Below, one piece after another: positions 16,213 to 40,106 of a stretch of 55,697 nucleotides of DNA (position 1 is its first letter; each line of letters starts with the position of its first letter). The DNA is from a virus (taxonomy: Duplodnaviria; Caudoviricetes), in IMG/VR virus record IMGVR_UViG_3300018432_000007, positions 1 through 55,697 of that record; one strand, 5' to 3'. The translations under genes and the position numbers were made by a program. Under the pieces are notes generated by a model. It searched no databases. It was not told the origin of the DNA and saw only the letters and a list, made by a program, of their open reading frames with translations.

Positions 16213-16284
16213 GGTGACTCCCGTGGTGTCCGGACCGGGCCCGTTGCCCTGATCTCGTACCCTCAATCTACCACATCCGTGTCT
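16213..16284 (-). promoter_or_regulatory. Promoter-hairpin cassette A
   Basis: Imperfect operator, TGG-TAGATT, hairpin GATC-A-GGGC-aacgg-GCCC-GGTC (16233-16254), SD. Confidence 0.8.
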
Positions 16285-16351
16285 CATGCGTACACATACG
16301 TGTGGCGCCCGCAGCGGGAGCCGCGAGCGCCACAGTGGGCCATCGGGTCGG

Positions 16352-16909
16352 TCAGTAGCGGGCGCCGGGCTGCTCGACCAGCGTCACGGCGTCAACGGCC
16401 CGCAGTTCCGTGCGGTGGTCGGCGAACTGGATCACCAGGTAGGCACCGAACATGTCCACCTGCACACCCTCACGTCCGGTCATGTTGTCGCGGACGTGGG
16501 TCGCTGTCGGGCTGGTGACCCGCTGGGCGTACGCAGTGGCGCGGCGCGCGGCCGGGGCGCCGGTGACGGACCAGAACTGCACGGTTGCCCGCTCGATCGC
16601 GGCAGCCTCGGGGACGCAGGTGTGCAGGCTGGGAGCGTCGTGCACGCCGCACTTCTCGCAGGGTCGCGGCGAGTCGTCGAACTCGGTCACGATGATGTGG
16701 ACCGGCGAGCCGGTGGACGGCTTGAACGTCCACACCCCGTCCTCGTTGTACGACACGGACGCGGTCCGCTGCTCGTCGCGGGTGAGCGCGACGGATGCAG
16801 CCAGTTCAGCGGCGGTGACAGCGTCGGGTGCGGCGTACCGGCGCTCGGGCGTTCCCTGCAGGCGCTTGCCGTTGGTGCCGACCTGGACCGTGGTGTAGAT
16901 GCTCATCAT
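16352..16909 (-). CDS. Hypothetical protein; N-terminal domain paralogous to 18332..19237
   Basis: MSIYTTVQVGTNGKRLQGTPERRY...DGVWTFKP. Confidence 0.7.
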   Translation of the reverse strand: MMSIYTTVQVGTNGKRLQGTPERRYAAPDAVTAAELAASVALTRDEQRTASVSYNEDGVWTFKPSTGSPVHIIVTEFDDSPRPCEKCGVHDAPSLHTCVPEAAAIERATVQFWSVTGAPAARRATAYAQRVTSPTATHVRDNMTGREGVQVDMFGAYLVIQFADHRTELRAVDAVTLVEQPGARY

Positions 16910-16982
16910 GTCTCCCGTGGTGACCGGGTCGGGACCGTCTCCCTGACCTCTGAAAGAACAGTACCACATGCATGTGGGGTCA
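16910..16982 (-). promoter_or_regulatory. Promoter-hairpin cassette B
   Basis: CCACATGCATGTGG (16964-16977), TACTGT, hairpin GGTC-A-GGGA-gacgg-TCCC-GACC (16927-16948), SD GGGAG. Confidence 0.85.
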
Positions 16983-18335
16983 TGCGGCCATGCCGTTCCT
17001 GACCTGCTCGCGCAGCGCCAGGAGATGACGCACAGCTGCAGCAGCCTGGTGCGGAACGACGCCGTTGCCGAGCGCTTTCAGCGCATCGTTCCGCGAGATC
17101 GGCATCGTCCGGCGTGCGACCGAACCGCGGTGACCGACCGGCCGCGTGTCCCCGCCGGCTCGACGCTGCTGCAGCCGGGCACGCCACGCCTCGACGCTCT
17201 CACCTGTCACCCATCCGTCTGGGAGGCCCATCATCCACTCGACGAATCGCGGCGACAGGCGCGCAGCTCCCCCCTTCCCCGTTGCCTCGGTGGGGTCAGG
17301 TGCGGGACGCCCCAGGATCGACTCCCAGCGGGCCACGGCTGGGGCGTACTGGCGGAACCGGTGCGTCACCGCGCTGGGCAGCATCCGGTCGCCGGACGAG
17401 CCGCGCTGGTTCGGTCCCCCCTTGGTCCCGTCCGTAGCCCGGGGTGTGGGGAGCATGCGCAGCGCCTCGATCGCGAGGGACTTCCCGTGCCCGTTGCCGT
17501 TGCCGTGCGCCGACTTCATGCGTGCTGTCCAGGCGTCCCAGTCCGCGACCGCCTTGCCCGCTCCCATGTCGTTCACCGCCGGCGTCGGGAGCAGGGTCAC
17601 GGCTTCCGTACGAGCCGACCCACTGCCTCGTGCAGCGAGTCCCCGCCCGTCCCAGGCCGGTTCATCCGTGCGTAGTCCGGGCCACTGCTGCCCAGTTTCG
17701 CCTCGGGAGTCGGCAGCAGGCCAGGCAAGGACGAAGACTCGGAACCGCCCGTGAGGGGCGCCGACGTCGGAAGCGCGTACGCCCGTCCACCCAGCGTCAT
17801 ACCCGAGCTCGGCCAGGTCTCCGAGTACACGACCGAGTGCCCGCATAGGGTCTCCTCCGGCCTCTCCCATGCAGAAGTCGCAGCGTTCCAGGTGGCCAGT
17901 AGTTGCGGGGGCGTTGAGTGCTCCACGGACGTTCTCCCATACGACGAGTTGCGGGCGGATGATGTCTACGGCGTCACACATCGAGGCCCAGAGCCCCGAG
18001 CGGGTCCCTGGGCGCATCCCGGCGCGGTGACCGGCGTTGCTGAGGTCCTGGCACGGTGAGCCGCCCGAGACGACGTCTACGGGCTCGACCGCTGACCAGT
18101 CCACCTGGGTGACGTCACCGAGGTTCGGCACGCCGGGGAACCTGGTGGCGAGCACGTGGGACGGGGCGCGGTCTACCTCGGCAACCCAGGACGTCTCGAC
18201 GTCGAGCACCTGGGCCAGGCCCAGTTCCAAGCCGCCGTACCCCGCGAACAGGGCACCGGCCTTGAGGCGTCGCGGATATGGGCGAGCCCCCGTCCGGCTC
18301 TGGATGAGCCGGACGGGGGCGTGCCTGCTGATCAC
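16980..18335 (-). CDS. C5-cytosine DNA methyltransferase
   Basis: Motif I FAGYGG, IV GSPCQD, VI ENV, VIII PH.R.R.F, X LGNGVV; LPTP repeats in the variable region. Confidence 0.92.
   Translation of the reverse strand: MISRHAPVRLIQSRTGARPYPRRLKAGALFAGYGGLELGLAQVLDVETSWVAEVDRAPSHVLATRFPGVPNLGDVTQVDWSAVEPVDVVSGGSPCQDLSNAGHRAGMRPGTRSGLWASMCDAVDIIRPQLVVWENVRGALNAPATTGHLERCDFCMGEAGGDPMRALGRVLGDLAELGYDAGWTGVRASDVGAPHGRFRVFVLAWPAADSRGETGQQWPGLRTDEPAWDGRGLAARGSGSARTEAVTLLPTPAVNDMGAGKAVADWDAWTARMKSAHGNGNGHGKSLAIEALRMLPTPRATDGTKGGPNQRGSSGDRMLPSAVTHRFRQYAPAVARWESILGRPAPDPTEATGKGGAARLSPRFVEWMMGLPDGWVTGESVEAWRARLQQRRAGGDTRPVGHRGSVARRTMPISRNDALKALGNGVVPHQAAAAVRHLLALREQVRNGMAA
17597..17926 (-). CDS. Alternative-frame ORF nested in the methyltransferase
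   Basis: 'SETWPSSGMT..G.AY.LP...SSS..LLPTP' signature of overlapping phage methylase partner ORFs. Confidence 0.5.
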   Translation of the reverse strand: MEHSTPPQLLATWNAATSAWERPEETLCGHSVVYSETWPSSGMTLGGRAYALPTSAPLTGGSESSSLPGLLPTPEAKLGSSGPDYARMNRPGTGGDSLHEAVGRLVRKP

Positions 18336-19237
18336 CGCACCATTTCGAGGTCAGCGGGCGAGAACGCGCCCAGAACACCGCTCGCGGTGCGGGCGTACAC
18401 GGGCTTGGCGAGCGGGTGATTGGCAACGATCTGCTCGACGGTCATGGGCTCGGACCACTCGCTGCCCGCGAACTCCGGCAGGGTGCAGCGGACGGTGTCG
18501 CCCAGCGCGAATGTGTTCTGCGCGGACAGGAGCACCTTGCAGCGCGCCTCGGCTGCGGTGATCGCGTCCCGCCGGTCGTCGCGCGGCGCCGGGGTCACCG
18601 TGCGCAGCGCGGTGACATAGCCCGTGCGGCGGCGCTGGCGTGACGGCGAGTTGCCGATCGTGTCCTCGGTGACGAGCCACACGTATGTACGGCCCTCGGC
18701 GTCACGGCTCTCGGAACCGCCCAGGGGAGCCTCGACAACCACGTAGCGAACGCCCTGGTTCTTCGCGTACTGCGGGCTGTCCTCACGGAACTCGACGACG
18801 GCGCCGACCGCCGGGGCGGTGGTGGGGCTGGCGATCTCGGTGCTCATGGTGTCTCCCTCGGTGACGGGGTCGGCACTAGTTTCGCTGGTCACCTCGGAAA
18901 AGACCGGGTCGAAGTCGGACAGCACGGCGCACGCGCGGTCTGCCAGCGCCGAGTCGAAGTTGTCGCGCTTCATCTCGCGGATCACCTTGCGAGCCTGCTC
19001 CACGGTCATCTCGGGCTCATCCTCGACGACGCGCACGAAGACCACGGAGCCCAGCGCGGTGGGGTTGAACGTGTACACGCCATCCTTGCTGCCACCGTGC
19101 ACGTACCCCTTGCCCGCGATCGCCATCACGTGGAACTTGGCCGCGACAGCGGGGAGACCTACGCGGTACTTCCGGCTCGGCGCGCCATCGAGGGCGTTGC
19201 CGTGGCGGTCGGTCTGAGTAGCGGTGTACGTCTTCAT
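18332..19237 (-). CDS. Hypothetical multi-domain protein, probable fusion with internal start at 18847
   Basis: MKTYTATQTDRHGNALDGAPSRKY...DGVYTFNP; internal cassette remnant with SD and ATG. Confidence 0.7.
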   Translation of the reverse strand: MKTYTATQTDRHGNALDGAPSRKYRVGLPAVAAKFHVMAIAGKGYVHGGSKDGVYTFNPTALGSVVFVRVVEDEPEMTVEQARKVIREMKRDNFDSALADRACAVLSDFDPVFSEVTSETSADPVTEGDTMSTEIASPTTAPAVGAVVEFREDSPQYAKNQGVRYVVVEAPLGGSESRDAEGRTYVWLVTEDTIGNSPSRQRRRTGYVTALRTVTPAPRDDRRDAITAAEARCKVLLSAQNTFALGDTVRCTLPEFAGSEWSEPMTVEQIVANHPLAKPVYARTASGVLGAFSPADLEMVR

Positions 19238-19314
19238 GATGTCTCCCTGGGTGACTCTGGTCGGGACTCGCTCCCTGACCTCTGACAGAACAGTACCACA
19301 TGCATGTGGGGTCA
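19238..19314 (-). promoter_or_regulatory. Promoter-hairpin cassette C
   Basis: CCACATGCATGTGG (19296-19309), TACTGT, hairpin GGTC-A-GGGA-gcgag-TCCC-GACC (19259-19280). Confidence 0.85.
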
Positions 19315-19346
19315 CGCGCGGGTGGCGCATGACCCCACGGTGCGGA

Positions 19347-19679
19347 TCAGCGAGGACGATTGCCCACCATGTGGTCGGCGGCGAGCGGGACGATCGAGTA
19401 GCGGCCGATCGCGGCGGCGAGGCCAGCGTGGGTCAGGCTGCCCTTGGACTTGCCCGGCGTCGGGATCATCGCGTCACCCTCGGTGGGGCGCCCGACCTCC
19501 TCAAGCACCTCACGCACCACGTAGCGGATGCCGACGCTGTCCACCTCGGTGACCTCGCAGAGCGTGGTGAAAGAGTGGATGTGCTTCGACCCGTCGGTGG
19601 CGGTCCAGAAATGTCCCTCGTTCTTCTGGAACTGGGCGCCGACCGTGACGGTGGTCTGCTGGCGGGTGCTGCGGCTCAT
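19347..19679 (-). CDS. Hypothetical protein behind cassette D
   Basis: GGGAG SD; MSRSTRQQTTVTVG... Confidence 0.7.
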   Translation of the reverse strand: MSRSTRQQTTVTVGAQFQKNEGHFWTATDGSKHIHSFTTLCEVTEVDSVGIRYVVREVLEEVGRPTEGDAMIPTPGKSKGSLTHAGLAAAIGRYSIVPLAADHMVGNRPR

Positions 19680-19753
19680 GGTGTCTCCCGTGTGACTGGG
19701 TCGGGACTCTCTCCCTGACCTCGTGACAGAACAGTACCACATTCATGTGGGGT
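19680..19753 (-). promoter_or_regulatory. Promoter-hairpin cassette D
   Basis: CCACATTCATGTGG (19737-19750), TACTGT, hairpin GGTC-A-GGGA-gagag-TCCC-GACC (19699-19720). Confidence 0.85.
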
Positions 19754-19757
19754 GCCG

Positions 19758-20345
19758 TCACGTGGTGGCCACCTTTTCCAGCCAGCGGTGCAGTTCCCGT
19801 ACGTGGCGCGCGTCCGCGAGCGCATGATGCGCGGCGCGCTCCTGGGTGGGCGGGTTCCCGTCGAACGCCCACACGCGCGCCCCGACCAGCCGGCTCGCTT
19901 CCTGCTGGATGTCGTTGGTGTACATCGGGATCCCTGCGGGGAGCTCGACCATCGAGCCGAACAACTGCGCGAGCAGCACGTGGTCATACGCCGCGTAGTC
20001 GGCCCAGAGCTCGACGGGTCCGCCGGCGGCCAGGATGAACTCGCGCACCTCGCGGGCGATCGTCTCGCGGCGCTTCACGACCGGGTCCCCGTAGTGGAAC
20101 AGCCACCGCTTGCCCATGCTGTTGCGCATGTCGCCCGAGCCCTTGGGGAGCTGCGGCACAACGTGGTCCATCAGCCACCGGTGGCGCTTGATACGGCGGA
20201 CGGGCATGTCCCGGTTGACCGCGTAATACTCGCGCCCGTCCTCGCTGACCATGCCGATCGAGATCGGCTCGATGGTGCGTCCGTCCTCGATAAATTCGGT
20301 GTCGTACCAGATGCGGGTCACGGGGTTCTGCTCGGTGGTGGCCAT
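19758..20345 (-). CDS. DEDDh 3'-5' exoribonuclease (Rv2179c/RNase AS-like)
   Basis: YDTEFIEDG.TI..ISIG.V.EDGREYYA, LWA.YAAYDHV and H.ALADA motifs. Confidence 0.88.
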   Translation of the reverse strand: MATTEQNPVTRIWYDTEFIEDGRTIEPISIGMVSEDGREYYAVNRDMPVRRIKRHRWLMDHVVPQLPKGSGDMRNSMGKRWLFHYGDPVVKRRETIAREVREFILAAGGPVELWADYAAYDHVLLAQLFGSMVELPAGIPMYTNDIQQEASRLVGARVWAFDGNPPTQERAAHHALADARHVRELHRWLEKVATT

Positions 20346-20355
20346 GGCGGTCATG

Positions 20356-20545
20356 GTGTCAGACCAAGCCGTCACAGCGGTGACACGGGGTGTTGTGCTG
20401 GTGCTGTGTCACCGGGCTGTGTCAGTGCCGCAGCCGCGCGTTTCCGGGGCTGTAAGGGCGTGTCAGGCCGGGAACGCCCGTAGGGCCCCCGCGCACGCGC
20501 GCGGGGGCCCTACGGGGTCTGTGGCGATCTGCTGACACGTGACAC
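20356..20545. repeat. Cluster of seven TGACAC/GTGTCA hexamers
   Basis: At 20356, 20381, 20406, 20419, 20460, 20533 and 20540, in intergenic DNA. Confidence 0.7.
20477..20516. terminator. Terminator-like hairpin
   Basis: CCCGTAGGGCCCCCGCGC/GCGCGGGGGCCCTACGGG. Confidence 0.75.
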
Positions 20546-20582
20546 AGGTGGAGCGGCGCCCGTGGGCGCCGCTCCGGTCGTG

Positions 20583-20741
20583 CTAGCCCTGCGGGCGTGG
20601 ATCCCCGTTGCCGGGGTGCTCGTCCTTGAGGTGCTGCACCAGCGCTGAGAAGTTCCTGCACCTCTCGCCGCACTGGTCGCACTTGGGCTTGCCCAGCATC
20701 CCGTCGGCGATCTTGTCCAGTTCGTCACCCGTGGGTGGCAT
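20583..20741 (-). CDS. 52-aa protein with one C2H2 zinc finger (not in the ORF track)
   Basis: MPPTGDELDKIADGMLGKPKCDQCGERCRNFSALVQHLKDEHPGNGDPRPQG; SD AGGAGG. Confidence 0.75.
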   Translation of the reverse strand: MPPTGDELDKIADGMLGKPKCDQCGERCRNFSALVQHLKDEHPGNGDPRPQG

Positions 20742-20817
20742 GTTGACCTCCTGGTCTCCGGGCCGGGGCGGTTCCCCTGACCTCGTACCCTCAGATTACC
20801 ACATGCATGTGGGGTCA
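20742..20817 (-). promoter_or_regulatory. Promoter-hairpin cassette E
   Basis: CCACATGCATGTGG (20799-20812), TAATCT, hairpin GGTC-A-GGGG-aaccg-CCCC-GGCC (20761-20782). Confidence 0.85.
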
Positions 20818-21009
20818 GGTGTACGCCTTGCCGCTCTCGCGGACGACGTCGCCCGCGAACTCGGAGATCTGCCCCTCGTCGCTCGTGGTGAGCGTCCCCG
20901 TCTGCTGCCCGGCTGCGTTGCACACCACGATGTGCAACGCGCCGTCCCTGTGCACCACGTGCACTGTGCAAGGTGCGCCGGTGTTGCCGATCGTCCACTT
21001 GGTGGCCAT
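20815..21009 (-). CDS. Small hypothetical protein
   Basis: GAGAGGA SD; 64 aa. Confidence 0.65.
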   Translation of the reverse strand: MATKWTIGNTGAPCTVHVVHRDGALHIVVCNAAGQQTGTLTTSDEGQISEFAGDVVRESGKAYT

Positions 21010-21039
21010 CGTCGTTCCTCTCGGTCGGTGAGTTGCAGG

Positions 21040-22203
21040 TCAGCCCATGGCCGCGATGACCACGTCACGGTCGTTGTATGCAGTGCGCAGGCTCGCCTTG
21101 AAACCTGCAGCGAGCAGGGCCTTGTGCACCATGTCCCCGGTTGCATCGCGGTGCTGCTGCAAGAACTCGCGGACCACCTCGCGCCGGTCGGTCACCGTGG
21201 CGTTCTTGGGGGTCTCGACGGGCCGACGCGCAGTGGGCAGGTCGGCCAGGATTGCAGACGCCTCCCGCTGCACAGCGGCTGCAGCCCGGGCGGCGTACTC
21301 GTGCACATCTGCAGTTGCAGGCCCTGCAGTTGCAGGCTCGGGCTGCAGGTCTGCAGGTGCAGATGCAACTGCAACGGGGTGTGCAACTGCAGGTGCAGAC
21401 TGCAGAACCTGCACGTGTGCAGCATCTGCAGGTGCAGGCTGCACGTGGTCTGCAACTGCAATCAGGTCGCCCTGCATCTTGTGTGCAGTGCTGGCCGCGA
21501 TCGCTGCAACCGAGACGCGGACCTGCTCGGCGTACTGCGCAGACCGCAGCCACGCGCCCAGTTCGGCGTCCCGCTCCTCGCGGGGCACGTGCTTGGCGAT
21601 CCGGCGCGCAGCGGCACGGGCCCGCGCAGCGGCCAGAGGAGCGCGCCAGGAGCCGTGTGCCAGCCCCTCGGCCTCTCCGGCCTTGAAGAACCGGTACAGG
21701 AGCGTGTGGCGGCTCTCCTGGGCCCGGTGGGCACGGTGCCGTGCACCACAGAACAGGTGGATCACCAGTTCCCAGAGCCCGGCGGCGAGGAACGGCGCGA
21801 ACATGCGCCACCCGGCAGCCGACGCAGCGGCGGACAGGGTCAGGTTCCCGGCCAGGTACTCCATGATCTCGAACAGGGCACCGAACAGCCCCGAGACGCC
21901 GGACAGCGCCCACGTCGCGGTGCGGAACACTGCGGTCGGCTGGAGCCGGTACGCCTCGATGAACGTGGCCCCGGCGACCACGGCCAGGGCCAGTTCGATG
22001 ACGCCGCCGAACAGGTAGGACGTGATCTCGGGCAGTTGCATGACGTTCTGCGCGAACGCCACGCCACCCAGGTAGGCCGCGCCGTTGGCGACGACGGCGA
22101 CGAGCAGCACGGCAAACGTGAGCGCGATCAGCAGCCGGCGGATGAATGCAGGCTCGGCCATGTGTGCAGGAGCTGCAGGCGTGGTGGTGTGGTCGGTGTG
22201 CAC
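21040..22203 (-). CDS. Membrane-anchored protein with about 4 TM helices, an Ala/Pro linker and a C-terminal HTH (DUF2637/Spd-like architecture)
   Basis: Hydrophobic N-half; C-term 'DRREVVREFL...VHKALLAAGFKASLRTAYND'; GTG after AGAGGA. Confidence 0.7.
   Translation of the reverse strand: MHTDHTTTPAAPAHMAEPAFIRRLLIALTFAVLLVAVVANGAAYLGGVAFAQNVMQLPEITSYLFGGVIELALAVVAGATFIEAYRLQPTAVFRTATWALSGVSGLFGALFEIMEYLAGNLTLSAAASAAGWRMFAPFLAAGLWELVIHLFCGARHRAHRAQESRHTLLYRFFKAGEAEGLAHGSWRAPLAAARARAAARRIAKHVPREERDAELGAWLRSAQYAEQVRVSVAAIAASTAHKMQGDLIAVADHVQPAPADAAHVQVLQSAPAVAHPVAVASAPADLQPEPATAGPATADVHEYAARAAAAVQREASAILADLPTARRPVETPKNATVTDRREVVREFLQQHRDATGDMVHKALLAAGFKASLRTAYNDRDVVIAAMG
21252..21509. repeat. 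Dense TGCA array within the linker-coding DNA
   Basis: About 27 TGCA in about 260 bp by manual count, often 6 bp apart. Confidence 0.9.
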
Positions 22204-22447
22204 TGGGATTCCTCTCTGTGCAGGCGGTCGGGACTCGTTCCCTGACCTGGTCCGCAGACCGTACCACATGCATGTGGGATTGCACATGCATGTGTGCAGA
22301 CGCTGTTACGGATGCATGCTTGTGACCTGCACAGTTGCAGTTGCACACCGGGATTGCAGATCACCTGCAGAGACCTGTTGCATGGCTTCTGCACATGCAA
22401 GAGGGCCCGTTGCACACCTGGTGTGCAACGGGCTCTCGGTTCTGCAG
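22146..22447. repeat. Second TGCA array over the gene start and upstream intergenic DNA
   Basis: About 21 TGCA in about 300 bp, including the hairpin at 22401-22437. Confidence 0.88.
22204..22294 (-). promoter_or_regulatory. Promoter-hairpin cassette F
   Basis: CCACATGCATGTGG (22264-22277) plus extra CACATGCATGTG (22283-22294), TACGGT, hairpin GGTC-A-GGGA-acgag-TCCC-GACC (22226-22247). Confidence 0.85.
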
Positions 22448-22452
22448 ACGGG

Positions 22453-22632
22453 CTACCAGTCGTCTGCGGACTGGATGATCAGCACGCCGCCGAACACGAC
22501 CACACAGCCGATCGCCGCGCACACCCACCACGGGACGGAGACGTCGAACAGTGGCCCGTCGAGCAGCCGGATCGCGAGCGCGATCACTGCGGCGACGAGC
22601 AGCTTCACGACAAACTCAGTGACCGGGTGCAT
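22453..22632 (-). CDS. Small 2-TM protein
   Basis: MHPVTEFVVKLLVAAVIAL... Confidence 0.55.
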   Translation of the reverse strand: MHPVTEFVVKLLVAAVIALAIRLLDGPLFDVSVPWWVCAAIGCVVVFGGVLIIQSADDW

Positions 22633-22900
22633 GCCGTGGTCCTGGCTCGGGTATGAAGGTGACGAACGACTCCGCACGGGTACCGGCTTCCATGGCCTGG
22701 TGGTTCGCGAGCTGGCGGTAGATCCCGGGCCCGAACGTGCCGATCGAGGCGCCGCAGCCGCAGATGGATCCGCCGGCGTACCCGACGCGGGGCGGGTCGC
22801 TCTTGTCCGGCTCGACGTGGACGTGGTCGAACAGGATGTTCCCCAGCACTTCCAGGTCCACCACGACGCGGAACAGCGGCACGGTGGGATCGTCTGTCAC
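22616..22900 (-). CDS. Hypothetical protein
   Basis: GTGA-coupled ORF. Confidence 0.55.
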   Translation of the reverse strand: MTDDPTVPLFRVVVDLEVLGNILFDHVHVEPDKSDPPRVGYAGGSICGCGASIGTFGPGIYRQLANHQAMEAGTRAESFVTFIPEPGPRHAPGH

Positions 22901-23559
22901 TGGGGTACCTCCGGCGGACCGATCAGTGCCGTGGGAGTGGCGAGGTAGTTGGTGCGGTACACCCAGCAGTAAGCGGACACGTCCCCGTCCTGCACCTTGA
23001 ACCAGGTCGTGTTCTTGATCTCGTCGTTCCCCGAGATCATGCTCACGGAGTCAGCTGTGAACGCGGCCACGGGGACGTCGTTCTGGGTCTTGATCACCAC
23101 GAGCATGTCGCGGCCGGTGAACAACCCGCGGGCCCGGGTCTGCAGCACGTTCAACCACGGCACGCCGGGCTCGGTGGACGTCGCGGCGACCTCGATGTCT
23201 GCGCGGTCGAGCATGGTCACGCCGGTGTCGCAGATCATCGCGGACGAGCCGACCAGGTCCACGACGTGCTTCCCGACAGACACCGACACCACGGCGCCCT
23301 TCTCGGTCGAGCCGTCGTCAGTCGACGTGTCGTGCTCGGGGTTGTGGAACGGGTAGATCGACTTTCCGGTGATGACCGTGGTGGTCTGGCCGGTGTTGTT
23401 GTCGTACGTGTACAGGGTGGCCTCGCGGCCCTGCCACCGGGCTTTGGCGTCGTCCACGCTGAACTCGGCGCCCTCGCAGCCAGAGAGCGCGGTCAGTGGT
23501 GCGATGACGAGGGCAGCGAGCGCCATGGTGATGCGGTGTGCTCGGGGTGTGATTCTCAT
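22897..23559 (-). CDS. Lipoprotein (DUF5052-like)
   Basis: Signal peptide with lipobox LSGC; 'TYD..G....I.GKSI' and 'VGSS.I' motifs. Confidence 0.7.
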   Translation of the reverse strand: MRITPRAHRITMALAALVIAPLTALSGCEGAEFSVDDAKARWQGREATLYTYDNNTGQTTTVITGKSIYPFHNPEHDTSTDDGSTEKGAVVSVSVGKHVVDLVGSSAMICDTGVTMLDRADIEVAATSTEPGVPWLNVLQTRARGLFTGRDMLVVIKTQNDVPVAAFTADSVSMISGNDEIKNTTWFKVQDGDVSAYCWVYRTNYLATPTALIGPPEVPQ

Positions 23560-25127: not shown

Positions 25128-25522
25128 GCGCCGTCCGGGATGACCACGAGACCGACGCCGAGCAGCGCGTCAGCGTTCCGGTAGTACCGGGACTGACGCT
25201 CGATGTTCATCAGGCGCCATTCGTGACCGTCCGATTCCGCGAGTGTCCGGGCAACGTTCTCGCGTTCTTCTGGTGATCGCCAGGAGCGCCGTTCGGGCGC
25301 GACACCCCACACGCTGGGGTCGGACTCGATGCGGTCCCGGATGTACGTCAGCGCCCGCACACGGGTCTCGTACGGCAGGTTCTGCAGCAGGACCAGCACA
25401 CCCTCGATGGTGCTCAGCTCGGGGTCTGTCTGCGTCGTCGTGTAGTTGAACGTCAGCGGGTCCGGGCCCGGCTCGGGCATGGGCTCGGGGTCGCGGCGGG
25501 GATCTTCGTTCTCGGGTCCCAC
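25124..25522 (-). CDS. Hypothetical protein
   Basis: AGGAGG SD before GTG (VGPENEDP...). Confidence 0.55.
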   Translation of the reverse strand: MGPENEDPRRDPEPMPEPGPDPLTFNYTTTQTDPELSTIEGVLVLLQNLPYETRVRALTYIRDRIESDPSVWGVAPERRSWRSPEERENVARTLAESDGHEWRLMNIERQSRYYRNADALLGVGLVVIPDGA

Positions 25523-25565
25523 GGGGTTCCTCCTGTGTGTGGTGTGGTGCAACACGGTAGCGGTG

Positions 25566-25946
25566 TCAGAACAGGGTGTCCTGCACGGGCAGATCGTCGG
25601 GCCACGAACCAGCGTCGCCATAGTCGGTGTCGTCAAGGTCCCAGACCTCGCCGGTGTCCAGGTCGCTGACCTGGTCCAGGTGGCAGCCGGGACAGCGCCG
25701 CACGACGAGCCGCACGTGCGGGTACAGGTCCGCTACGCCGTTGCCGGGCAAGAGCGTCCCGACGGCGCGCAGGTCGGTGTCACGGATCCACCCGCAGCCG
25801 GTGCAGGCCCAGTGGTCGGACGGGACGTGGAACACGAGCGTCGTGCGGCCGGCTAGGCCACCCTCGTCGGTCCAGTCCGACCACTGGACCGGGCGCCCGT
25901 CCCACAGTGGCGGCAGGTCGTGGGGACGGGCGTTCGTGGTCATCAC
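25566..25946 (-). CDS. Zinc-ribbon-like hypothetical protein
   Basis: 'LPPLWDG..V.W', CTGC, RCPGC and 'WDLD..DY...GS'. Confidence 0.7.
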   Translation of the reverse strand: MMTTNARPHDLPPLWDGRPVQWSDWTDEGGLAGRTTLVFHVPSDHWACTGCGWIRDTDLRAVGTLLPGNGVADLYPHVRLVVRRCPGCHLDQVSDLDTGEVWDLDDTDYGDAGSWPDDLPVQDTLF

Positions 25947-26105
25947 GTCAGGATGCCTTGGCCTCTCGCGCCGCGACGGCGAGCTGCCGCGCGGCGTCGT
26001 CCCAGCGGATGCCCTGCGTCCGGGCGTGGTCAGACACCAGCTCGACGATCTCGTCCCACTCCATCGGCGCGAGTTCGCGCCGCAGCGTGGTGAAGGTCCC
26101 GGGGT

Positions 26106-26477
26106 TCATCCGCGGCCCTCACGGTGGGCACGGGCGCGCAGGACCTTGGCTGCGGCACGGTTCGCCGCAGTGTCGATCCCGGCGTTCGCGTCGCGCTCGG
26201 CGTCCGCGGCGACCTTGAGGAGCAGCGACGCCCCGTAGACGCGCGTGGTCAGGGAGTTGGCGCGCTCCTCGCGGCGGGCATAGTCGGCGCCGAACGTGCG
26301 CACCTGGACCATGGCGCCGTAGACCGGCAGTACCTCGGCGAGCGCCTGGACCAGGATGCTCTCGGGGATCTCGCGCAGCTCGGGGTGCCGCTCGCGCATC
26401 ACCTTGACCATCTCGGGAGCGGCGAGGTAGTCGGCGGGCGCTGCCTCGCCGCCGGTGGGGGTCAGGTCGGCGCTCAT
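26106..26477 (-). CDS. Hypothetical protein
   Basis: ATGA-coupled to the initiator gene. Confidence 0.6.
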   Translation of the reverse strand: MSADLTPTGGEAAPADYLAAPEMVKVMRERHPELREIPESILVQALAEVLPVYGAMVQVRTFGADYARREERANSLTTRVYGASLLLKVAADAERDANAGIDTAANRAAAKVLRARAHREGRG

Positions 26478-27697
26478 GCGTTCTGCTCGCTCTCTGCCCG
26501 CAGGCGGCTCGGGGGGATGACGTCACCGATCGTGGTGGTCCGGCGTGGCGCGCCCTGGGAGAGCGCGGCGCGGGCTGCCTCGAACGCGGCCCGGCCGCGC
26601 CCGTTTGCGTCGTTCGCTGCGGCCACGGCAGCCTCGAACGCGATCGCCTGGGCCGCGCCGGATCCGGGTGCAGCCTGCCCGGCGTTGATGTTGCAGTCCG
26701 GGCAGCGGCGCACGTACTCGCGGCCCTCGGGGTCGGTGGCCATGGCCATGCGGGTGCGGTGGTCGCACCGGCCGCACCACGCCAGGTGCACAGGACGTTC
26801 CTGTGCGGGCTGCATCGGCGCCGGTGCGATCTCGAACCCACGCCACTGCATGATCCGCTCGGAGAGCCGCCCAGCGTTGTGCAGGGACACCACCAGGCCC
26901 TCGGGGTTCGTGGCGCCGGTGGCCTCGATCAGCCACGTGCGGAACCGGGTCTGCTCGTCGGGGTTGAGCATCATGGCGTCCAGGATCGAGGACGGGCTGC
27001 CGACGGCGCGCGGAGCGTCGCCGTGATCCCCCTCGGGCTCGTCCGCAGCAGCGTCCGCGTTACGAGACTGGACGTTGCTGCTCGATGTCTCCACGGGTCC
27101 AGCAGTAGGCGCGCGGAGCGCGCCACTGCTCCGAGGGTCCTGGGGAGGGTTATGGAGAGGGTTGGGTGTCCCGGGGACACCCCTGGGGGTGTCTGTGTGA
27201 AACCCCTGGGGGTGTCCCTCTGACACCCCAGGCTTGGGGTGTCTCTCTGACACCCCAGGATCTGGTGCCTTGTCGGCCCTCGGCTTGCGCTCCGGAGCAG
27301 GCGCGAGCTCGGGCCGATCCTGCGGGGTCAGCGGCGGGCGCCCACGGCCCGCACGCCAGATGTTCACCGACAGTTCGGCCTCGGCGCCGTCGTACCGCTT
27401 CTCGGCCCGGAAGTACGACAGGGGCACCTGCAGGTCGTACACGACGGGGCGCCGGTTGGCGGGGATCATGAGCGCCGAGCGCTGGTCACCCTGCCGGATC
27501 AGGCCACGGTCTTCCAGGTCACCCATCCGACGGCGCACCGTCGACTCAGCGAGCCGGGTGCGGGCGCTGATCGTCATGATCGACAGGAACGAGTTACACC
27601 CGTCCTGGTCAGCGGCCTCGGACATCGCCACGAGCACGGCCCACTCCTGGGCGTCTGCGACGGGTGCGGCCTTGACGGCCCACAGGATCTGTTCCAC
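26474..27697 (-). CDS. Replication initiator with N-terminal winged HTH and C-terminal CxxC...CxxC
   Basis: 'VLVAMSEAAD.DG...FLS..TIS.RT.L.ESTVRR....LE..GLI' HTH; carries iterons; start uncertain (27697 has SD GAGGGAG). Confidence 0.8.
   Translation of the reverse strand: MEQILWAVKAAPVADAQEWAVLVAMSEAADQDGCNSFLSIMTISARTRLAESTVRRRMGDLEDRGLIRQGDQRSALMIPANRRPVVYDLQVPLSYFRAEKRYDGAEAELSVNIWRAGRGRPPLTPQDRPELAPAPERKPRADKAPDPGVSERHPKPGVSEGHPQGFHTDTPRGVPGTPNPLHNPPQDPRSSGALRAPTAGPVETSSSNVQSRNADAAADEPEGDHGDAPRAVGSPSSILDAMMLNPDEQTRFRTWLIEATGATNPEGLVVSLHNAGRLSERIMQWRGFEIAPAPMQPAQERPVHLAWCGRCDHRTRMAMATDPEGREYVRRCPDCNINAGQAAPGSGAAQAIAFEAAVAAANDANGRGRAAFEAARAALSQGAPRRTTTIGDVIPPSRLRAESEQNA
27164..27256. repeat. 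Four palindromic iterons GGGGTGTC-N5-GACACCCC (probable origin)
   Basis: At 27164-27182, 27186-27206 (one mismatch), 27209-27229 and 27236-27256. Confidence 0.85.
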
Positions 27698-27900
27698 GTA
27701 TCTCCCTCTCACTGGGTGAGCGGAAGCCGGAACGCCCCAAATGCCTGGTAGCATCGTGGGCGAGACGTAGCCGGGTGCTTCCGGCTTCCTGCCTCCGGGG
27801 CCCTGCACAGGTCCCGGGGGCATTTCTCTTGTTCCGGACACCATACATGCCTAAGGCACCGTTTCAGCGCTGCTCAAGGGTGATGCCCCCGTGTCTGTCA

Positions 27901-27975
27901 ATCCCACACCCGTGTGGTACTGTTCTGATGCAAGGTCAGGGAGCGAGTCCCGACCCAGTCACCCAGGGAGACACC
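27901..27975 (+). promoter_or_regulatory. Promoter-hairpin cassette G
   Basis: CCACACCCGTGTGG (27904-27917), TACTGT, hairpin GGTC-A-GGGA-gcgag-TCCC-GACC (27934-27955), SD. Confidence 0.85.
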
Positions 27976-28308
27976 ATGAACACCCGCCGGCCCAACTCTG
28001 CGGGGCGCCCCTTCCAGCCCGGCGACCACGTCCGCATCACGGACCACACGCGCCAGCTCGTAGCGCCCGCTGAGCAGTACGTGTATGAGGGCATCGTTTC
28101 GAGGATTGATCCCGGAGCAGATCCCGACAGCGGGCACGACTACGGCCCATACCTGTGGATCGACACAGAGCCGTTCGACAACGGATCCGGGAAGACGTAC
28201 ACCGCGACGTTCTGCCCTCTCACGGAGGACCTGACCAAGGGCTCGGACGTGTTCGGTCGGACGATCGAACTGCTGGAGCCCGTGATAACCGACGGCGCGT
28301 CCAACTGA
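27976..28308 (+). CDS. Hypothetical SH3-like beta protein
   Basis: 'FQPGDHVRI...EGIVSRI'; followed by a hairpin at 28312-28349. Confidence 0.7.
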   Translation: MNTRRPNSAGRPFQPGDHVRITDHTRQLVAPAEQYVYEGIVSRIDPGADPDSGHDYGPYLWIDTEPFDNGSGKTYTATFCPLTEDLTKGSDVFGRTIELLEPVITDGASN

Positions 28309-28382
28309 ACTACCGGGTGCGGCCCGGCTTCCCCCGGGCCGCACCCGGTTCTCATCCCACCACCGCGAGGAACGAGGACACC

Positions 28383-29039
28383 ATGGCCACGAGCATCACG
28401 ATCAGCATCAGCGGGGACGGCGACGCGCACGTCTGCGGTCCCATGTGCGACTGCCCCACCGCGCTCTACCAGACACAGGTCGCGATCGACACCGACCGCC
28501 GCGAGCAGGGCATGCAGCCCCGGGGCCTCAGCGAGCGCCTGCAGGCGATGCGGTACGCCGCACCGACGACGGCATGGTTCGAGGAGATGTCCCTGGAAGC
28601 CGTCCGGCTGGAGACCATGGCCGCGACAAGCCGGGTTCGGGACTGGATCATCCGCGACCACCCCGACAGCGACGCCGCCGTCTGGGCTGCTGAGTGCGAC
28701 GCTGCCGACGCCGCCACACCGGAAGCGCGGTACATCACGCTGCGCACCGCGATCGAGCCGCTGGTGCCGCTCCTGGTCCGCGCTGACCTGTTGCCAGCCG
28801 ATCACGAATACGTGTGGCGCGACGACATCGGGGAAGCAGTCGTGCACGCGGGCCATTACCGGTTCGCCGTCAGCGCGGCTGCCACGAGCGCGGCACGGAA
28901 CGGGGCATGGCTCGTCACGACGTCGGATGAGCGCTCCGGCGACAACACGGACGGCACGTTCAGCGAGCGCGTGAGCGTCGATCGGCAGGAGATCCGCGCG
29001 TGGCTCGTCGCCTGGGCTGCCGCGAACACCTACGCCTGA
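28383..29039 (+). CDS. Hypothetical protein
   Basis: GAGGA SD; MATSITISISGDG... Confidence 0.7.
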   Translation: MATSITISISGDGDAHVCGPMCDCPTALYQTQVAIDTDRREQGMQPRGLSERLQAMRYAAPTTAWFEEMSLEAVRLETMAATSRVRDWIIRDHPDSDAAVWAAECDAADAATPEARYITLRTAIEPLVPLLVRADLLPADHEYVWRDDIGEAVVHAGHYRFAVSAAATSAARNGAWLVTTSDERSGDNTDGTFSERVSVDRQEIRAWLVAWAAANTYA

Positions 29040-29084
29040 CCAGCACCACCCACCACACACCCACCACCACAAGAGAGGCCCACC

Positions 29085-29258
29085 ATGGGACTTTTCAGCC
29101 GCGACACCGAGGACACGTCCACGCCTGCGGAGCGCAAGGCGTGGAAGCGCCGCGCCGAGCAGCAGATAGCCGAGCAGCGCCGCGAGCAGCAGGGCATCCC
29201 CCGTACGCCGCCACCGGCGCCAGGATCGCAGCACCGCCGCGCACGCCGCCCCGAGTAG
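29085..29258 (+). CDS. Small basic protein (57 aa)
   Basis: GAGAGG SD; MGLFSRDTEDTSTPAERKAWKRR... Confidence 0.55.
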   Translation: MGLFSRDTEDTSTPAERKAWKRRAEQQIAEQRREQQGIPRTPPPAPGSQHRRARRPE

Positions 29259-29365
29259 CGTTCTGACGCACTCCCCGGCCCACCAGCGCCCCATCACGGG
29301 GCGTTGGTGGGCGGGGGGAGTACGGCAGGCCACCAACCCCTCACGACGCCACGAAAGGCACCCTG

Positions 29366-29884
29366 ATGACCGAGCCCACCACCCCCACCACCGACGAGCC
29401 CGAGGAGGTCACCGCCGGTTGGCTGTTCATGACCGCGAACGCCCTCGGCCTGTCAGAGGCCGATCTCGCGTTCGTGCTCGGCGTCCGCCAGGACACCATC
29501 CGGAAGAACTGGAAGTACGGCACCGCCGCGATCGCCGACGGCGTCCGCACCGACCTGCAGAAGTTCGTCAAGTTCACCGACGAATGCGTGAACCTGCTCG
29601 TCGATCGCGCGGAAGGGATGACCGATCCCGCGATCGTCGTCTACGCGAACCTCCGCGACGTCCCCGAGCGCCACGTGGCTGCCGAGTACGGCATCACCTG
29701 GTGGGACCACGTCGCGTTCTCCGTGCACAAGCAGCTCCCCGAGGTGTACGTGGGCAACCTGATGGAGATCGGCGCCGCATACGACTACGACCACGTCCGG
29801 GGCCTGTCCAGCGTCCACGATGACCCGTCCATGCTCGCGATCTGGGTAACCCCGCAGCGCACCCGCGCCGGGCGCACCGTCTGA
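29366..29884 (+). CDS. Aca2/YdiL (DUF1870)-like HTH protein
   Basis: 'LGLSEADLA.VLGV..DTIR..W..G...I.DGVR', then a helix, 'DP.IVVY' and 'W...VA..V....P'. Confidence 0.7.
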   Translation: MTEPTTPTTDEPEEVTAGWLFMTANALGLSEADLAFVLGVRQDTIRKNWKYGTAAIADGVRTDLQKFVKFTDECVNLLVDRAEGMTDPAIVVYANLRDVPERHVAAEYGITWWDHVAFSVHKQLPEVYVGNLMEIGAAYDYDHVRGLSSVHDDPSMLAIWVTPQRTRAGRTV

Positions 29885-29914
29885 CCCCTGCTCGACCACA
29901 CGAGAGGAACCACC

Positions 29915-30100
29915 ATGGCCTGGCTAGCCCCGATGAACAGATGGCGTCTGCTGACCGCATCAGACCCCGCGTACGACGGCATCCGCTACGCGGCCCTCGC
30001 GCCGGGCTGCACCAACGAGCCCCACGACGGCACCGAGTGCGGCTGCCGCATGTTCCTCGACCAGAGCGAGGGGGACAAGTACATCCGCAGCGTGATGTAG
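29915..30100 (+). CDS. Small hypothetical protein
   Basis: GAGAGGA SD. Confidence 0.6.
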   Translation: MAWLAPMNRWRLLTASDPAYDGIRYAALAPGCTNEPHDGTECGCRMFLDQSEGDKYIRSVM

Positions 30101-30137
30101 CCGGCTGACCAACCCCGCTCGACGAGAGGAACCACCC

Positions 30138-30569
30138 ATGGAAGAGATCCAGATCAACGCAGGGCCCCTGCGCGTTCCCACCGAGGAGAACGCCCAGGCC
30201 AACATGGACGCGTTCGCGTCAGACCTGGTCCTGCTCGACATCACCACCACGGCGATCACCCGCAACCCCGGCGCCGACGCAGACGGCCGGTACGGCTACC
30301 AGCTCGGGTTCGAGGACGGGCGCGTGCTCGACGTCGAGATGCCCGGGCTCCCGCTCGCGGAGGTCCGCTACCTCGACGAGGACGGGCAGGACATCTGGAC
30401 GTTCCCCAAGGTGTCGATCGGCGGCGAGCCGTGGGTGTGGATGTTCGCCCTCAAGGCGTGCCAGCAGCCCGGGCTCACCGCGACCCAGCAGCCCGTGCCC
30501 ACGCCGTACGAGCAGCAGGACGACAACCCCGACCCCACCAAGTGCGGGGACCCGGACTGCGACTGCTGA
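30138..30569 (+). CDS. Acidic hypothetical protein
   Basis: GAGAGGA SD; followed by a hairpin at 30574-30610. Confidence 0.7.
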   Translation: MEEIQINAGPLRVPTEENAQANMDAFASDLVLLDITTTAITRNPGADADGRYGYQLGFEDGRVLDVEMPGLPLAEVRYLDEDGQDIWTFPKVSIGGEPWVWMFALKACQQPGLTATQQPVPTPYEQQDDNPDPTKCGDPDCDC

Positions 30570-30718
30570 GACGACGAGATCCCCCAGCCCGGACAGGCTG
30601 GGGGATCTCGCCATGGCCCCGAGGGGGAAACCTCTGGGGGGTGTCGCCCCGACGTCGTCACAGCGTCGAGATCGTCAGGATAGCCCCCACCACCGACACG
30701 GCGCTGGTGAGTTGGTGA

Positions 30719-30982
30719 TCAGCGGCCAGGACGTGACTGCTGAACCAGGTAGGTCGCGGCCTCGAACCCCAGGATCTCGTCCACCTGCCCGGGGAAGTCA
30801 GCTAGCCGTGCCACGGCCCGCATCATCGCGGCCCACTGGGACGGATGCACGGTACGAGCGATCGGCGGAAGCCGCGGGAACTGGTCCACCGGACCGGCGA
30901 GCGGCGGACGATGACTGTCACCGAACGGCGTCGAGCGGGCATACCGTGCGAGCGCGTCGGCTATCTCGTCAGCCATCAGCAT
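30719..30982 (-). CDS. Hypothetical protein, divergent from 31062
   Basis: 87-aa ORF next to an AT-rich intergenic region. Confidence 0.45.
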   Translation of the reverse strand: MLMADEIADALARYARSTPFGDSHRPPLAGPVDQFPRLPPIARTVHPSQWAAMMRAVARLADFPGQVDEILGFEAATYLVQQSRPGR

Positions 30983-31061
30983 TACCCACCCGTCATCGTT
31001 ATGGCATTACCAGAAATGCCAGCATAATTCTCGAAACGATAACAATCTACAGGTGAGGTAA

Positions 31062-31418
31062 ATGCATATCGACGGAACCGGCCCCGTGCTTTCCTGCGAT
31101 CACAGCGCCCATACGGACACGCAGCTGATCGAATGCCTCGCGCAGTCGTGGGGCGTGACGGTGCCCCAGCTGATCGCGATCATGGCCGCGCTCGTCCTGT
31201 CCCACACCGAACGCGCGGCGATCGCGGACACCACCCCGATCGGGGTGATCAGCCTGTTGCCCGAGCTGCCCGGCCGCGAGTGCGACTGGTGTCACCGCCA
31301 GCTGCCGCCCGGCATCCACCACTCCCGGAAGTACTGCCCAGACACCGACTGCCGACGCCACGCGTACAACGCTTGGCAGCGAGCCGGCCGACCCACCAAC
31401 AGGAAGAGCACCGCATGA
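31062..31418 (+). CDS. Putative DNA-binding protein with C-terminal CxxC...C...C zinc motif
   Basis: GAGGT SD; 'CDWC..QLP.....RKYC....CR'. Confidence 0.65.
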   Translation: MHIDGTGPVLSCDHSAHTDTQLIECLAQSWGVTVPQLIAIMAALVLSHTERAAIADTTPIGVISLLPELPGRECDWCHRQLPPGIHHSRKYCPDTDCRRHAYNAWQRAGRPTNRKSTA

Positions 31419-31654
31419 ACTGGCCCGTCATCACCCTGATCGCGCTCACCCTCGGCGTCGCCGCCGCAGCACTGTGGCTCGCCGTCGTCGACATCCGCGC
31501 CGACCGAGCTCACAACCGGTGGATGCGCCGCAACGACGTTCGCCGGCGCCGTACCCGCATCGAGGTGTCCGGCATCAGCCGCGGCTACCGAGGCATGGGC
31601 CTCGACGGTCGCGCCGACCACCCCGGCGCCCTGCGCAAGCGCACCGGCCCCTGA
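31415..31654 (+). CDS. Small single-TM protein
   Basis: MNWPVITLIALTLGV...; ATGA-coupled. Confidence 0.6.
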   Translation: MNWPVITLIALTLGVAAAALWLAVVDIRADRAHNRWMRRNDVRRRRTRIEVSGISRGYRGMGLDGRADHPGALRKRTGP

Positions 31655-31806
31655 CCCCAGACACGTGAATGCCCCCGCCCCGATGGCCCATCGGAGCGGG
31701 GGCATTCCCCCGTGAAACACGCCCTGTGATCGCGACGACGAACACCAAGCACCCGCAGCGTAACCGACCCCAGACCGACACGGGGCCCCACCCACAGGTC
31801 GAGCCG

Positions 31807-31878
31807 CCCCACACGCGTGTGGTATATTGAGCGTGCGAGACCAGGGGAACCGCCCCGGTCCAGAGCCACGGAGGCACC
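31807..31878 (+). promoter_or_regulatory. Promoter-hairpin cassette H
   Basis: CCACACGCGTGTGG (31809-31822), TATATT, hairpin GACC-A-GGGG-aaccg-CCCC-GGTC (31839-31860), SD GGAGG. Confidence 0.85.
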
Positions 31879-32088: not shown

Positions 32089-32122
32089 CCCCCACCAGCA
32101 GCACCCCCGCGAGAGGAACACC

Positions 32123-40105: not shown

Positions 40106-40106
40106 C

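Follow-up and report, generated by a model that had tools for sequence, protein, structure and literature searches.

The early region of an uncultured soil siphovirus recorded in IMG/VR (IMGVR_UViG_3300018432_000007) contains eight dispersed cassettes, each combining a predicted promoter with a structured leader, and we consider it probable that they control eight early transcription units and share both design and ancestry with the control region of actinobacterial acr-aca2 operons. The window, by which we mean the whole 55,697-bp record (G000 in our set), carries direct terminal repeats, has a G+C content of ~68%, and is a complete 55.7-kb siphovirus genome. The cassettes have a common layout: a 14-bp palindrome, an extended -10 element (TGnTAnnnT), a spacer of 9 to 10 nt, a 22-nt bulged hairpin, a Shine-Dalgarno (SD) sequence, and a start codon. 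Aca2 is described as repressing transcription at an inverted repeat in the promoter and translation at hairpins in the 5' untranslated region (UTR) (PMC13551039; PMC6765145); a relationship to it would thus place an unnamed repeat within a recently described mechanism, in which a helix-turn-helix (HTH) protein represses at both promoter DNA and leader RNA. Judging from sequence, we read the cassettes as an enlarged Aca2-type regulon of 8 to 10 units, and the element as a putative new member of this class: a divergent, unusually multiplied DNA-plus-RNA control system.

The repeat was first described in an annotation made from the nucleotide sequence alone (the first-pass annotation), which listed eight cassettes of one layout. 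A strict hairpin pattern run on the window returns eight cassettes, and a covariance model (R1), built from 30 cassettes and run with filters off, gives exactly eight matches (73.9 to 91.3 bits), followed by a site at 10519 (18.9 bits) and a decayed copy (14.6 bits). A looser hairpin pattern adds a single match at 21832, which has no promoter and looks like a chance occurrence. The listed -10 boxes (TACTGT four times, and TAGATT, TAATCT, TACGGT, and TATATT), the list of stem sequences, and the spacing between -10 box and hairpin (10 nt in six cassettes, 9 nt in two) all stand. One position needs correction: the sixth cassette leads to a GTG start codon at 22203, in the open reading frame (ORF) 21040-22203, and not to one at 22204. 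In the window, all eight cassettes are oriented like the gene behind them; the hairpin has a lower and an upper stem of 4 bp each, separated by a bulged A, and a 5-nt loop, and 17 to 22 nt separate its end from the start codon. The tails of the cassettes are CAGTCACCCAGGGAGACACC-like or GCCAGGAGGC-like. The annotation had also proposed comparison with Rfam: the whole window has no match at gathering thresholds, and at E <= 10 the region 15500-32500 has 22 matches, none of them on a cassette hairpin.

The only other IMG/VR record with several copies in our pattern scans is G001, a collinear relative of 56,130 bp with ~75% nucleotide identity to the window genome; the remaining matches are single and chance-looking, and the scan of genome contigs gave a single match per row among the matches listed. 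R1 finds 10 cassettes in G001 (75.7 to 99.3 bits, everything else at or below 19 bits). Searches for related loci with the replication protein found none, and those with the alignment of the Aca2-like protein described below found G001 only. A pattern scan of short soil metagenome contigs added at least 15 further distinct cassettes, bringing the total to at least 33 (8 in G000, 10 in G001, and at least 15 from metagenomes); the 18 cassettes of G000 and G001 are also recovered by BLAST and by the covariance model, independently of the pattern. Among 33 distinct cassettes, the left palindrome arm is CCACA in 29, the spacer is 10 nt in 30 and 9 to 10 nt in all 33, and the last base of the loop is G in all 33. 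The bulged A, initially called invariant, is present in all eight cassettes of the window and in 32 of the 33, but a G001 copy has C. Likewise, the pentaloop holds throughout the window and in 30 of the 33 cassettes, but the loop ranges from 4 to 6 nt in relatives, with a 4-nt loop in one G001 copy. Six complementary arm combinations are found for the lower stem and three for the upper stem.

The link to Aca2 comes first from the leaders of actinobacterial aca2 operons. These loci (17 from IMG/VR and one GTDB genome) were found via the Aca2 protein, not via the motif, and R1 was trained on the phage clade of the window only. The model nevertheless matches upstream of aca2, on the aca2 strand, in 17 of 17 IMG/VR loci (16.6 to 29.4 bits); in the GTDB genome it matches at full length (24.5 bits), directly upstream of a small ORF that precedes aca2. 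The commonest form of the leader at these loci comprises GTCAYGA, then GGTC-A-GGGG-AACAG-CCCC-A-GACC, then an SD sequence within CCGG/CCGG, and ATG. Rows that reach far upstream contain a TAnnnT box, often TACTGT, not every part being present in every row. The full-length matches have TTCCA-N4-TGGAA or a similar inverted repeat, which lies within the promoter spacer and immediately precedes the -10; in four of the five a TTGnnn lies further upstream. In this set, 97.5% of cells are paired and five of the eight pairs covary. By this comparison, the window and actinobacterial aca2 operons evidently share one element, made up of -10, spacer, and first hairpin. Five aca2 proviruses have 0 to 1 R1 match each at E <= 0.01, a rough comparison because R1, tuned to the form in the window, is less sensitive to theirs, and three loci have weaker second matches less than 3 kb from aca2. 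One actinobacterial acr-like/aca2 operon (locus L537) also has a strong G+C hairpin at 1816-1876 (minus strand), which separates the 60-aa first ORF from aca2 and immediately precedes the SD sequence of the latter.

The second line of evidence is the regulator itself. The fourth gene of the operon led by cassette 7 (29366-29884, plus strand) encodes a 172-aa protein, to which a weak PHROG match ("HTH DNA binding protein," E = 3e-4) was the first pointer. It has 46 other homologous protein clusters, all unnamed and metagenomic, some of them on contigs of 44 to 56 kb. An AlphaFold (AF2) model built on 45 sequences reached a predicted local distance difference test score (pLDDT) of 88.4, and the ten best PDB matches of that model in Foldseek are all chains of SO3848, Aca2 (from phage ZF40 and relatives, one with DNA), or YdiL, at E = 8e-4 to 1e-2 with TMt up to 0.70; an approximately twenty-fold jump to E = 0.2 separates them from generic HTH proteins. 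The Pfam family of these proteins is PF08965 (Aca2_YdiL), and one PF08965-positive gene (29.8 bits) was found among 401 drawn actinobacterial genomes. Its product aligns with our 45-row alignment in hhalign at 98% probability (E = 2.6e-13, 123 columns, 28% identity), and BLASTP with the window protein matched the aca2 ORF in 16 of the 18 loci (E = 9e-13 to 6e-7). Thus, profile and pairwise comparisons link the protein to accepted Aca2/YdiL members, and the predicted structure has the fold of the family, with an N-terminal HTH, a C-terminal dimerization domain, and a homodimeric arrangement. The homodimer was predicted with an ipSAE of 0.84 against 0.00 for the best control, with runs agreeing in 100% of contacts at pLDDT of at least 82; among homodimers with solved structures 20 of 30 attain this mark, and among monomers 1 of 23. 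Because Aca2 dimers have been solved, this result may reflect likeness to them. Taken by sequence and modeled fold, the protein is a remote homolog of Aca2, and we propose that it binds the palindromes and perhaps also the hairpins in the leaders. The mechanism would then extend to a divergent Aca2 branch missed by Pfam.

On the one hand, the resemblance to the Aca2 autoregulatory region of ZF40-type acr-aca2 operons (Birkholz 2019; Birkholz 2024; Feussner 2026) is close. The gene for an HTH protein, a predicted dimer here, lies inside an operon of the regulated set (the cassette 7 unit); an inverted repeat lies in the predicted core promoter of that operon (27904-27917, adjoining the -10 of cassette 7); and a conserved, covarying hairpin follows directly after the expected start, with SD sequence and start codon at a fixed distance. 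The ZF40 Aca2 is reported to bind, as a homodimer, IR1 in the acrIF8-aca2 promoter, with IR2 located in the 5' UTR (PMC6765145). The aca10 and aca12 operons are described as built like those of aca1 and aca2, with a DNA motif overlapping the promoter, a predicted transcription start site (TSS) 10 to 15 nt after it, and an RNA motif directly after the TSS (PMC13551039). The same paper distinguishes two types of RNA motif, "proteo" and "actino" (PMC13551039); the window hairpin may be the published actino motif itself or a sister form. On the other hand, there are clear differences. The window operator is CCACA-N4-TGTGG, whereas actinobacterial loci have TTCCA-N4-TGGAA and ZF40 is reported to have TTCG-N6-CGAA (PMC6765145); the bulge is on one side only, and the second hairpin in the window is weak or variable. 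In the 2026 survey, at most three motifs cluster near neighboring operons (PMC13551039), whereas here 8 to 10 units per genome spread over ~16 kb. The scale would thus grow from between one and three operons to 8 to 10 units across a phage early region. Unlike in acr operons, no known anti-CRISPR gene was found downstream when the first genes were scanned with Pfam and PHROG. The first-pass annotation did not recognize the motif, but this is not an unknown class: the layout is Aca2-type, with a homolog encoded in the genome and the leader present at aca2 operons. The annotation's proposal of a regulon controlled at both the DNA and the mRNA level through a protein-binding leader gains support from this homology, not from experiment, and the suggested antitermination role finds no support.

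The palindrome differs from the hairpin in how it is conserved. With at most one mismatch, CCACAYNNRTGTGG occurs nine times in the window (mean of 0.88 in shuffled sequences; none of 100 shuffles reaches nine), and seven of the nine sites adjoin TAnnnT and then a hairpin, the ninth (10519-10532) having no hairpin. The operator had been said to covary (T..A versus C..G). This did not hold up: the central pair is UA in 21, UG in 3, CG in 2, and unpaired in 4 of 30 cassettes, and 134 of 500 shuffles reach its score. Because the arms are conserved in sequence, not in pairing, with no covariation of the central pair, the palindrome looks like a protein-bound DNA site. The 3' arm of the palindrome at the same time supplies the extended -10: all 18 cassettes in G000 and G001 retain TGTGGTAnnnT, which reads as TGn TAnnnT. 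A -35 is absent from the G000 cassettes; in 10 of 32 cassettes among relatives, TTGnnn lies 16 to 19 nt upstream, which puts the palindrome in the promoter spacer. Promoter activity and the TSS are predicted from this motif layout; no RNA run was found to contain 15500-23000. Searches of the literature for the 12-nt palindrome core returned unrelated papers only, a broader one on actinophage repeats gave nothing informative, and those on Streptomyces early promoters and inverted repeats had nothing relevant among the matches listed. A second copy of the palindrome core (CACATGCATGTG) at 22283-22294, a few bases upstream of the cassette 6 operator, gives tandem sites there.

Promoters of phage polymerases are conserved across the start site. 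The 60-nt conserved block could in principle be the site of a sigma factor or RNA polymerase of the phage itself, possibly one that reads a DNA hairpin, and it does cross the presumed start. We regard this as the least plausible explanation of all. The -10 is a standard TAnnnT with TGn, the TTGnnn noted above stands at 16 to 19 nt in 10 of 32 cassettes among relatives, and the aca2 loci with full-length matches retain the repeat ahead of the -10, four of the five with TTGnnn further upstream. Scans of 56 window ORFs, a subset of the total, with Pfam or PHROGs revealed neither an RNA polymerase nor a sigma factor.

The hairpin, in contrast to the palindrome, behaves as would be expected of paired RNA. 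All 240 pair cells in 30 cassettes are standard pairs, and sliding the register lowers pairing to 24 to 63%. The covariation seen in the first-pass annotation is borne out: both sides change in three of the eight pairs (18 cells), and none of 500 shuffles reaches the score. Its statement that noncanonical pairs are G-U on the transcribed strand only also agrees with the alignment, where only four cells depart from Watson-Crick pairing, each of them U.G when read on the sense strand; none would read G.U on the opposite strand, and none is A.C. Distinct stems coexist within one genome, and the hairpin is present in the minimum-energy fold of all eight window leaders. Because of the sense-strand U.G cells and the differing stems in a single genome, pairing in the transcript is favored over two protein half-sites in DNA.

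This bears on an explanation in which the hairpin region is a second, weaker DNA operator past the start site and RNA structure is irrelevant. Inverted repeats also "covary" as two half-sites, and the downstream repeat of ZF40 (IR2) was itself first read as a DNA site repressing at high Aca2 levels; however, the same report describes no DNA binding to IR2 in vitro (PMC6765145). In the cassettes, the arms differ within one genome and yet remain complementary (the six combinations above), which would not be tolerated by a single protein that recognizes half-sites. Dyad symmetry is broken by the 1-nt bulge, and the four U.G cells are as expected of a transcript. A DNA operator at this position therefore seems improbable to us.

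Stem-loops at the 5' end stabilize bacterial mRNAs. The hairpin could be a mere stabilizer against decay that depends on the 5' end (RNase J, RNase E, pyrophosphohydrolase), bound by no protein, with promoter and operator as described above; we judge this unlikely, although it deserves more weight than the DNA operator. The fixed 9 to 10 nt between -10 and hairpin would leave ~1 to 4 unpaired nt ahead of the stem, the SD sequence is not strongly sequestered in the leader folds, and the leftward replication operon also starts with a strong hairpin, of different sequence. That operon has at its head a 13-bp hairpin (27790-27822) after a TATGGT box, in a promoter region that is not of the cassette type. 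However, a stabilizer needs no fixed GGG/CCC, no bulged A, and no constant last loop G, an invariance that is partly due to ascertainment; nor does it explain why the sequence is kept at aca2 operons whose Aca2 has ~28% identity and a different DNA operator.

In the mechanism that we prefer, an Aca2-type regulon, host RNA polymerase would fire eight extended -10 promoters at infection, with transcripts starting 1 to 4 nt before the bulged hairpin and the inverted repeat thus lying at about -26 to -13. The Aca2-like HTH dimer would be made from the cassette 7 operon and accumulate, then occupy the inverted repeats and turn off all eight promoters, its own included. By analogy with Aca2, the dimer would finally bind the leader hairpin or hairpins and lower translation. 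Of these two inferred activities, RNA binding is the weaker one, because palindrome and hairpin have no core in common and a second hairpin holding the SD sequence is not significant.

Several observations weigh against this interpretation. The lack of a common core sets the window apart from ZF40, where IR1 and IR2 are reported to share one (PMC6765145), so that the idea of one protein binding the RNA as well is pure analogy. No Pfam family matches the protein at E <= 0.05, nor does any PDB sequence; six-frame searches of G000 and G001 with PF08965 gave nothing at E <= 10, so that by this hidden Markov model, with its cut-off of 23.8 bits, the protein falls outside the family. The aca2-locus alignment (A4) was fitted to R1, and most of its rows have an A on both sides of the stem, whereas the bulge in the window hairpin is one-sided. 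The folding energy of the eight leaders is not below that of shuffled sequences (z = -1.95 to +0.26). Of 32 tails, 27 have a stem of at least 3 bp bracketing the SD sequence, where shuffles predict 20.3, and 4 have one of at least 4 bp, where 4.9 are predicted, hence the lack of significance of the second hairpin. Finally, the pattern used in the metagenome search fixes G..CAGGG and CCCG, which makes some "invariant" bases partly a product of ascertainment.

Six cassettes lie on the minus strand. Cassette 1 (16201-16299, R1 73.9 bits) has a degenerate operator (16271-16284), whose 5' half (AGACA) is degenerate, beside the -10 TAGATT (16265-16270), and a hairpin at 16233-16254 with stems GATC/GGTC and GGGC/GCCC; an additional imperfect palindrome lies 13 nt upstream (16292-16305). 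It leads, from ATG 16212, to a gene for 133 aa (15811-16212). Cassette 2 (16895-16992, 87.5 bits; operator 16964-16977, -10 TACTGT, hairpin 16927-16948) leads to a gene for 185 aa (16352-16909, start ATG 16909/16906). Cassette 3 (19226-19324, 83.2 bits; operator 19296-19309, -10 TACTGT, hairpin 19259-19280, start ATG 19237) leads to a 301-aa ORF (18332-19237) and then to a C5 cytosine DNA methyltransferase (16980-18335, minus strand; PF00145, 7e-28), which belongs to the same unit. Cassette 4 (19668-19765, 91.3 bits; operator 19737-19750, -10 TACTGT, hairpin 19699-19720, start ATG 19679) leads to a gene for 110 aa (19347-19679). Cassette 5 (20730-20827, 82.4 bits; operator 20799-20812, -10 TAATCT, start ATG 20741) has the lower stem GGTC/GGCC, with a U.G pair, in its hairpin (20761-20782), and leads to a gene for 52 aa (20583-20741). 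Cassette 6 (22194-22292, 78.0 bits; operator 22264-22277, -10 TACGGT, hairpin 22226-22247, start GTG) leads to the 387-aa gene 21040-22203 and then to 20815-21009; this cassette and its gene form an orthologous pair in G001. The other two cassettes are on the plus strand. Cassette 7 (27889-27987, 89.6 bits; -10 TACTGT, hairpin 27934-27955, start ATG 27976) stands in front of the rightward operon to which the aca2-like gene belongs. Cassette 8 (31794-31890, 78.2 bits; operator 31809-31822, -10 TATATT, hairpin 31839-31860 with the stem GACC/GGTC, start ATG 31879) leads to 31879-32088, a PD-(D/E)XK nuclease gene (32123-32917), and an Erf gene (32969-33604).

Two weaker sites complete this inventory. 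The site at 10519-10532 (CCACATCCATGTGG, R1 18.9 bits) consists of the palindrome only, is kept in G001, and lies between the divergent ORFs 10317-10469 (minus strand) and 10583-10828 (plus strand), heading the leftward structural block. Read on the minus strand, the site adjoins CAAACT, not TAnnnT, and it is possibly an extra DNA operator. The 81-aa product of 10583-10828 has a C-terminal HTH-like stretch kept in G001, which makes it a second possible DNA binder. Considered as a candidate regulator, it has only a sub-threshold match to Sigma70_r3 (0.034), no PHROG match, and spurious PDB matches to TAL-repeat chains via one short stretch. The decayed copy (18844-18903, minus strand; R1 14.6 bits over model positions 36-99) has no operator or -10 and a degenerate hairpin, but its SD-ATG tail remains, in frame within ORF 18332-19237, which suggests either a fusion of two genes across a dead cassette or an internal start.

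Scans of the eight first genes and 24 other early-region ORFs (9.5-34 kb) gave names to few products: a methyltransferase, an Rv2179c-like exonuclease, a replication initiator, a PD-(D/E)XK nuclease, Erf, DUF5052, and DUF6283. Neither Pfam nor PHROG assigns a family to six of the eight first genes; for the 52-aa product there are sub-threshold zinc-finger matches only, and one first gene matches phrog_1933, of unknown function. The Rv2179c-like 3'-5' exonuclease (19758-20375, minus strand) is, like the C5 methyltransferase, within cassette-led units.

Gene content changes at the cassettes. Contigs of relatives (runs X2 and X4), which are DNA or of unspecified kind, skip 16343-16994, that is, one gene with cassette 2; a further X4 contig skips 16331-16997, and another X4 contig skips 19255-19712, from hairpin to hairpin. 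For only three of the eight cassette-led genes is there an orthologue behind the matching G001 cassette. Boundaries of genes gained or lost among relatives thus coincide with the repeated cassettes. Similar behavior is known from the PeSL elements of T4-type phages (Arbiol 2010; Comeau 2014), which were proposed as analogs in the first-pass annotation together with the start-associated repeats (SAS/ESAS) of mycobacteriophages; in both cases the analogy is one of layout, with no relation in sequence. PeSL elements are described as repeated intergenic units of stop codon, early promoter, stem-loop, SD sequence, and start codon before small ORFans, in which the stem-loop follows the upstream stop, precedes SD and start, and either overlaps the -35 and -10 or lies between them; they mark the ends of indels between close relatives (PMC2839356). 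PeSL stem-loops, however, are terminators of variable position and sequence, whereas the window cassettes have a fixed position, a conserved sequence, a separate operator, and an encoded cognate regulator (as proposed above).

The cassettes might accordingly be PeSL-like mobile promoter/terminator modules, kept by recombination and gene conversion, with the palindrome serving not as an operator but as a stem-loop that attenuates transcription arriving from upstream. Apart from the similar layout (PMC2839356), the indels that end in cassettes and the few matching orthologues speak for this, as do the upstream stop codons, which adjoin the palindrome in five of the eight window cassettes, and one palindrome copy flagged as terminator-like. 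However, the palindrome has a 5-bp stem in a genome of 68% G+C, its conservation in sequence rather than pairing fits a protein site, and its 3' arm serves as extended -10; moreover, a homologous regulator and the leaders at aca2 operons explain the conservation without mobility. We give this explanation very little credence as a replacement for the Aca2-type regulon, with which it is compatible as a side effect. In G001 (locus L130), strong G+C hairpins of 11 to 15 bp stand before four of four tested cassettes (3431-3490, 3858-3917, 6580-6639, and 7121-7180, minus strand); they follow the upstream stop codon (z = -3.7 to -6.6) and are terminator-like without a U tract. Seven tested stretches of the window contain no comparable upstream hairpin (z = +1.0 to -2.4).

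The SAS/ESAS repeats of Cluster K mycobacteriophages are described as having no recognized promoter and as being of unknown function and binding factor (PMC3203893). SAS-type repeats are also reported in Cluster EF Microbacterium phages, and other intergenic repeats in actinophages of Clusters O, EC, EG, and EI (PMC3203893; PMC7302621; PMC4351075). Like the cassettes, they are multicopy, orientation-specific, and located in non-structural regions (PMC3203893; PMC7302621; PMC4351075), they reportedly have an inverted repeat just upstream of a conserved SD-containing box, and they persist even where the downstream gene differs. Their sequences differ from those here: the window cassettes lack the consensus 13-bp ribosome-binding-site box GGGATAGGAGCCC with its upstream 17-bp imperfect inverted repeats (PMC3203893). 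The cassettes would belong to a wider actinophage habit of start-associated repeats (PMC3203893; PMC4351075; PMC7302621), and other repeats of this kind, SAS/ESAS among them, are worth examining for the same logic.

A broader view is attractive, but we hold it only tentatively and would sooner doubt it than rely on it: that one Aca2-like protein runs the whole early program of a phage clade common in soil via 8 to 10 DNA-plus-RNA sites, each fronting a small ORFan unit open to gain, loss, or exchange by recombination between cassettes, a plug-in rack of candidate anti-defense or host-takeover genes, and that the RNA hairpin is the more conserved half, kept across Aca2 lineages with a changed DNA operator. 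The cassettes may in any case serve as a cheap signpost, the genes behind them (eight first genes and their operon mates) being candidates for anti-defense or takeover functions. The recognition helix of the window protein differs from that of the proteins at actinobacterial aca2 loci; paired with the operator differences, this would provide a natural set for studying drift of DNA specificity with a constant RNA site.

According to PHROG scans, the main structural genes of the genome occupy two stretches of the minus strand, ~55.6 kb to 34.3 kb and ~10.4 kb to 1, including the terminase (1595-3097), portal (54040-55611), major head protein (45046-46941), tape measure (37457-40156), and endolysin (50463-51632) genes. 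The non-structural genes lie between ~10.5 and 34 kb, in a leftward block from 27844 to ~13964 and a rightward block from 27976 to 34101 that diverge at ~27.9 kb. No tRNA genes were found in the window, and no cultured phage matched 15000-23000 in megablast. Identity of the TerL protein to those of Microbacterium and other phages does not exceed 38%, and host and cluster are therefore left unassigned. A short rightward block contains, besides the 81-aa HTH-like protein, a membrane protein gene and a gene for a 734-aa FtsK/SpoIIIE-like protein (11440-13644, plus strand; phrog_1358, 1e-24).

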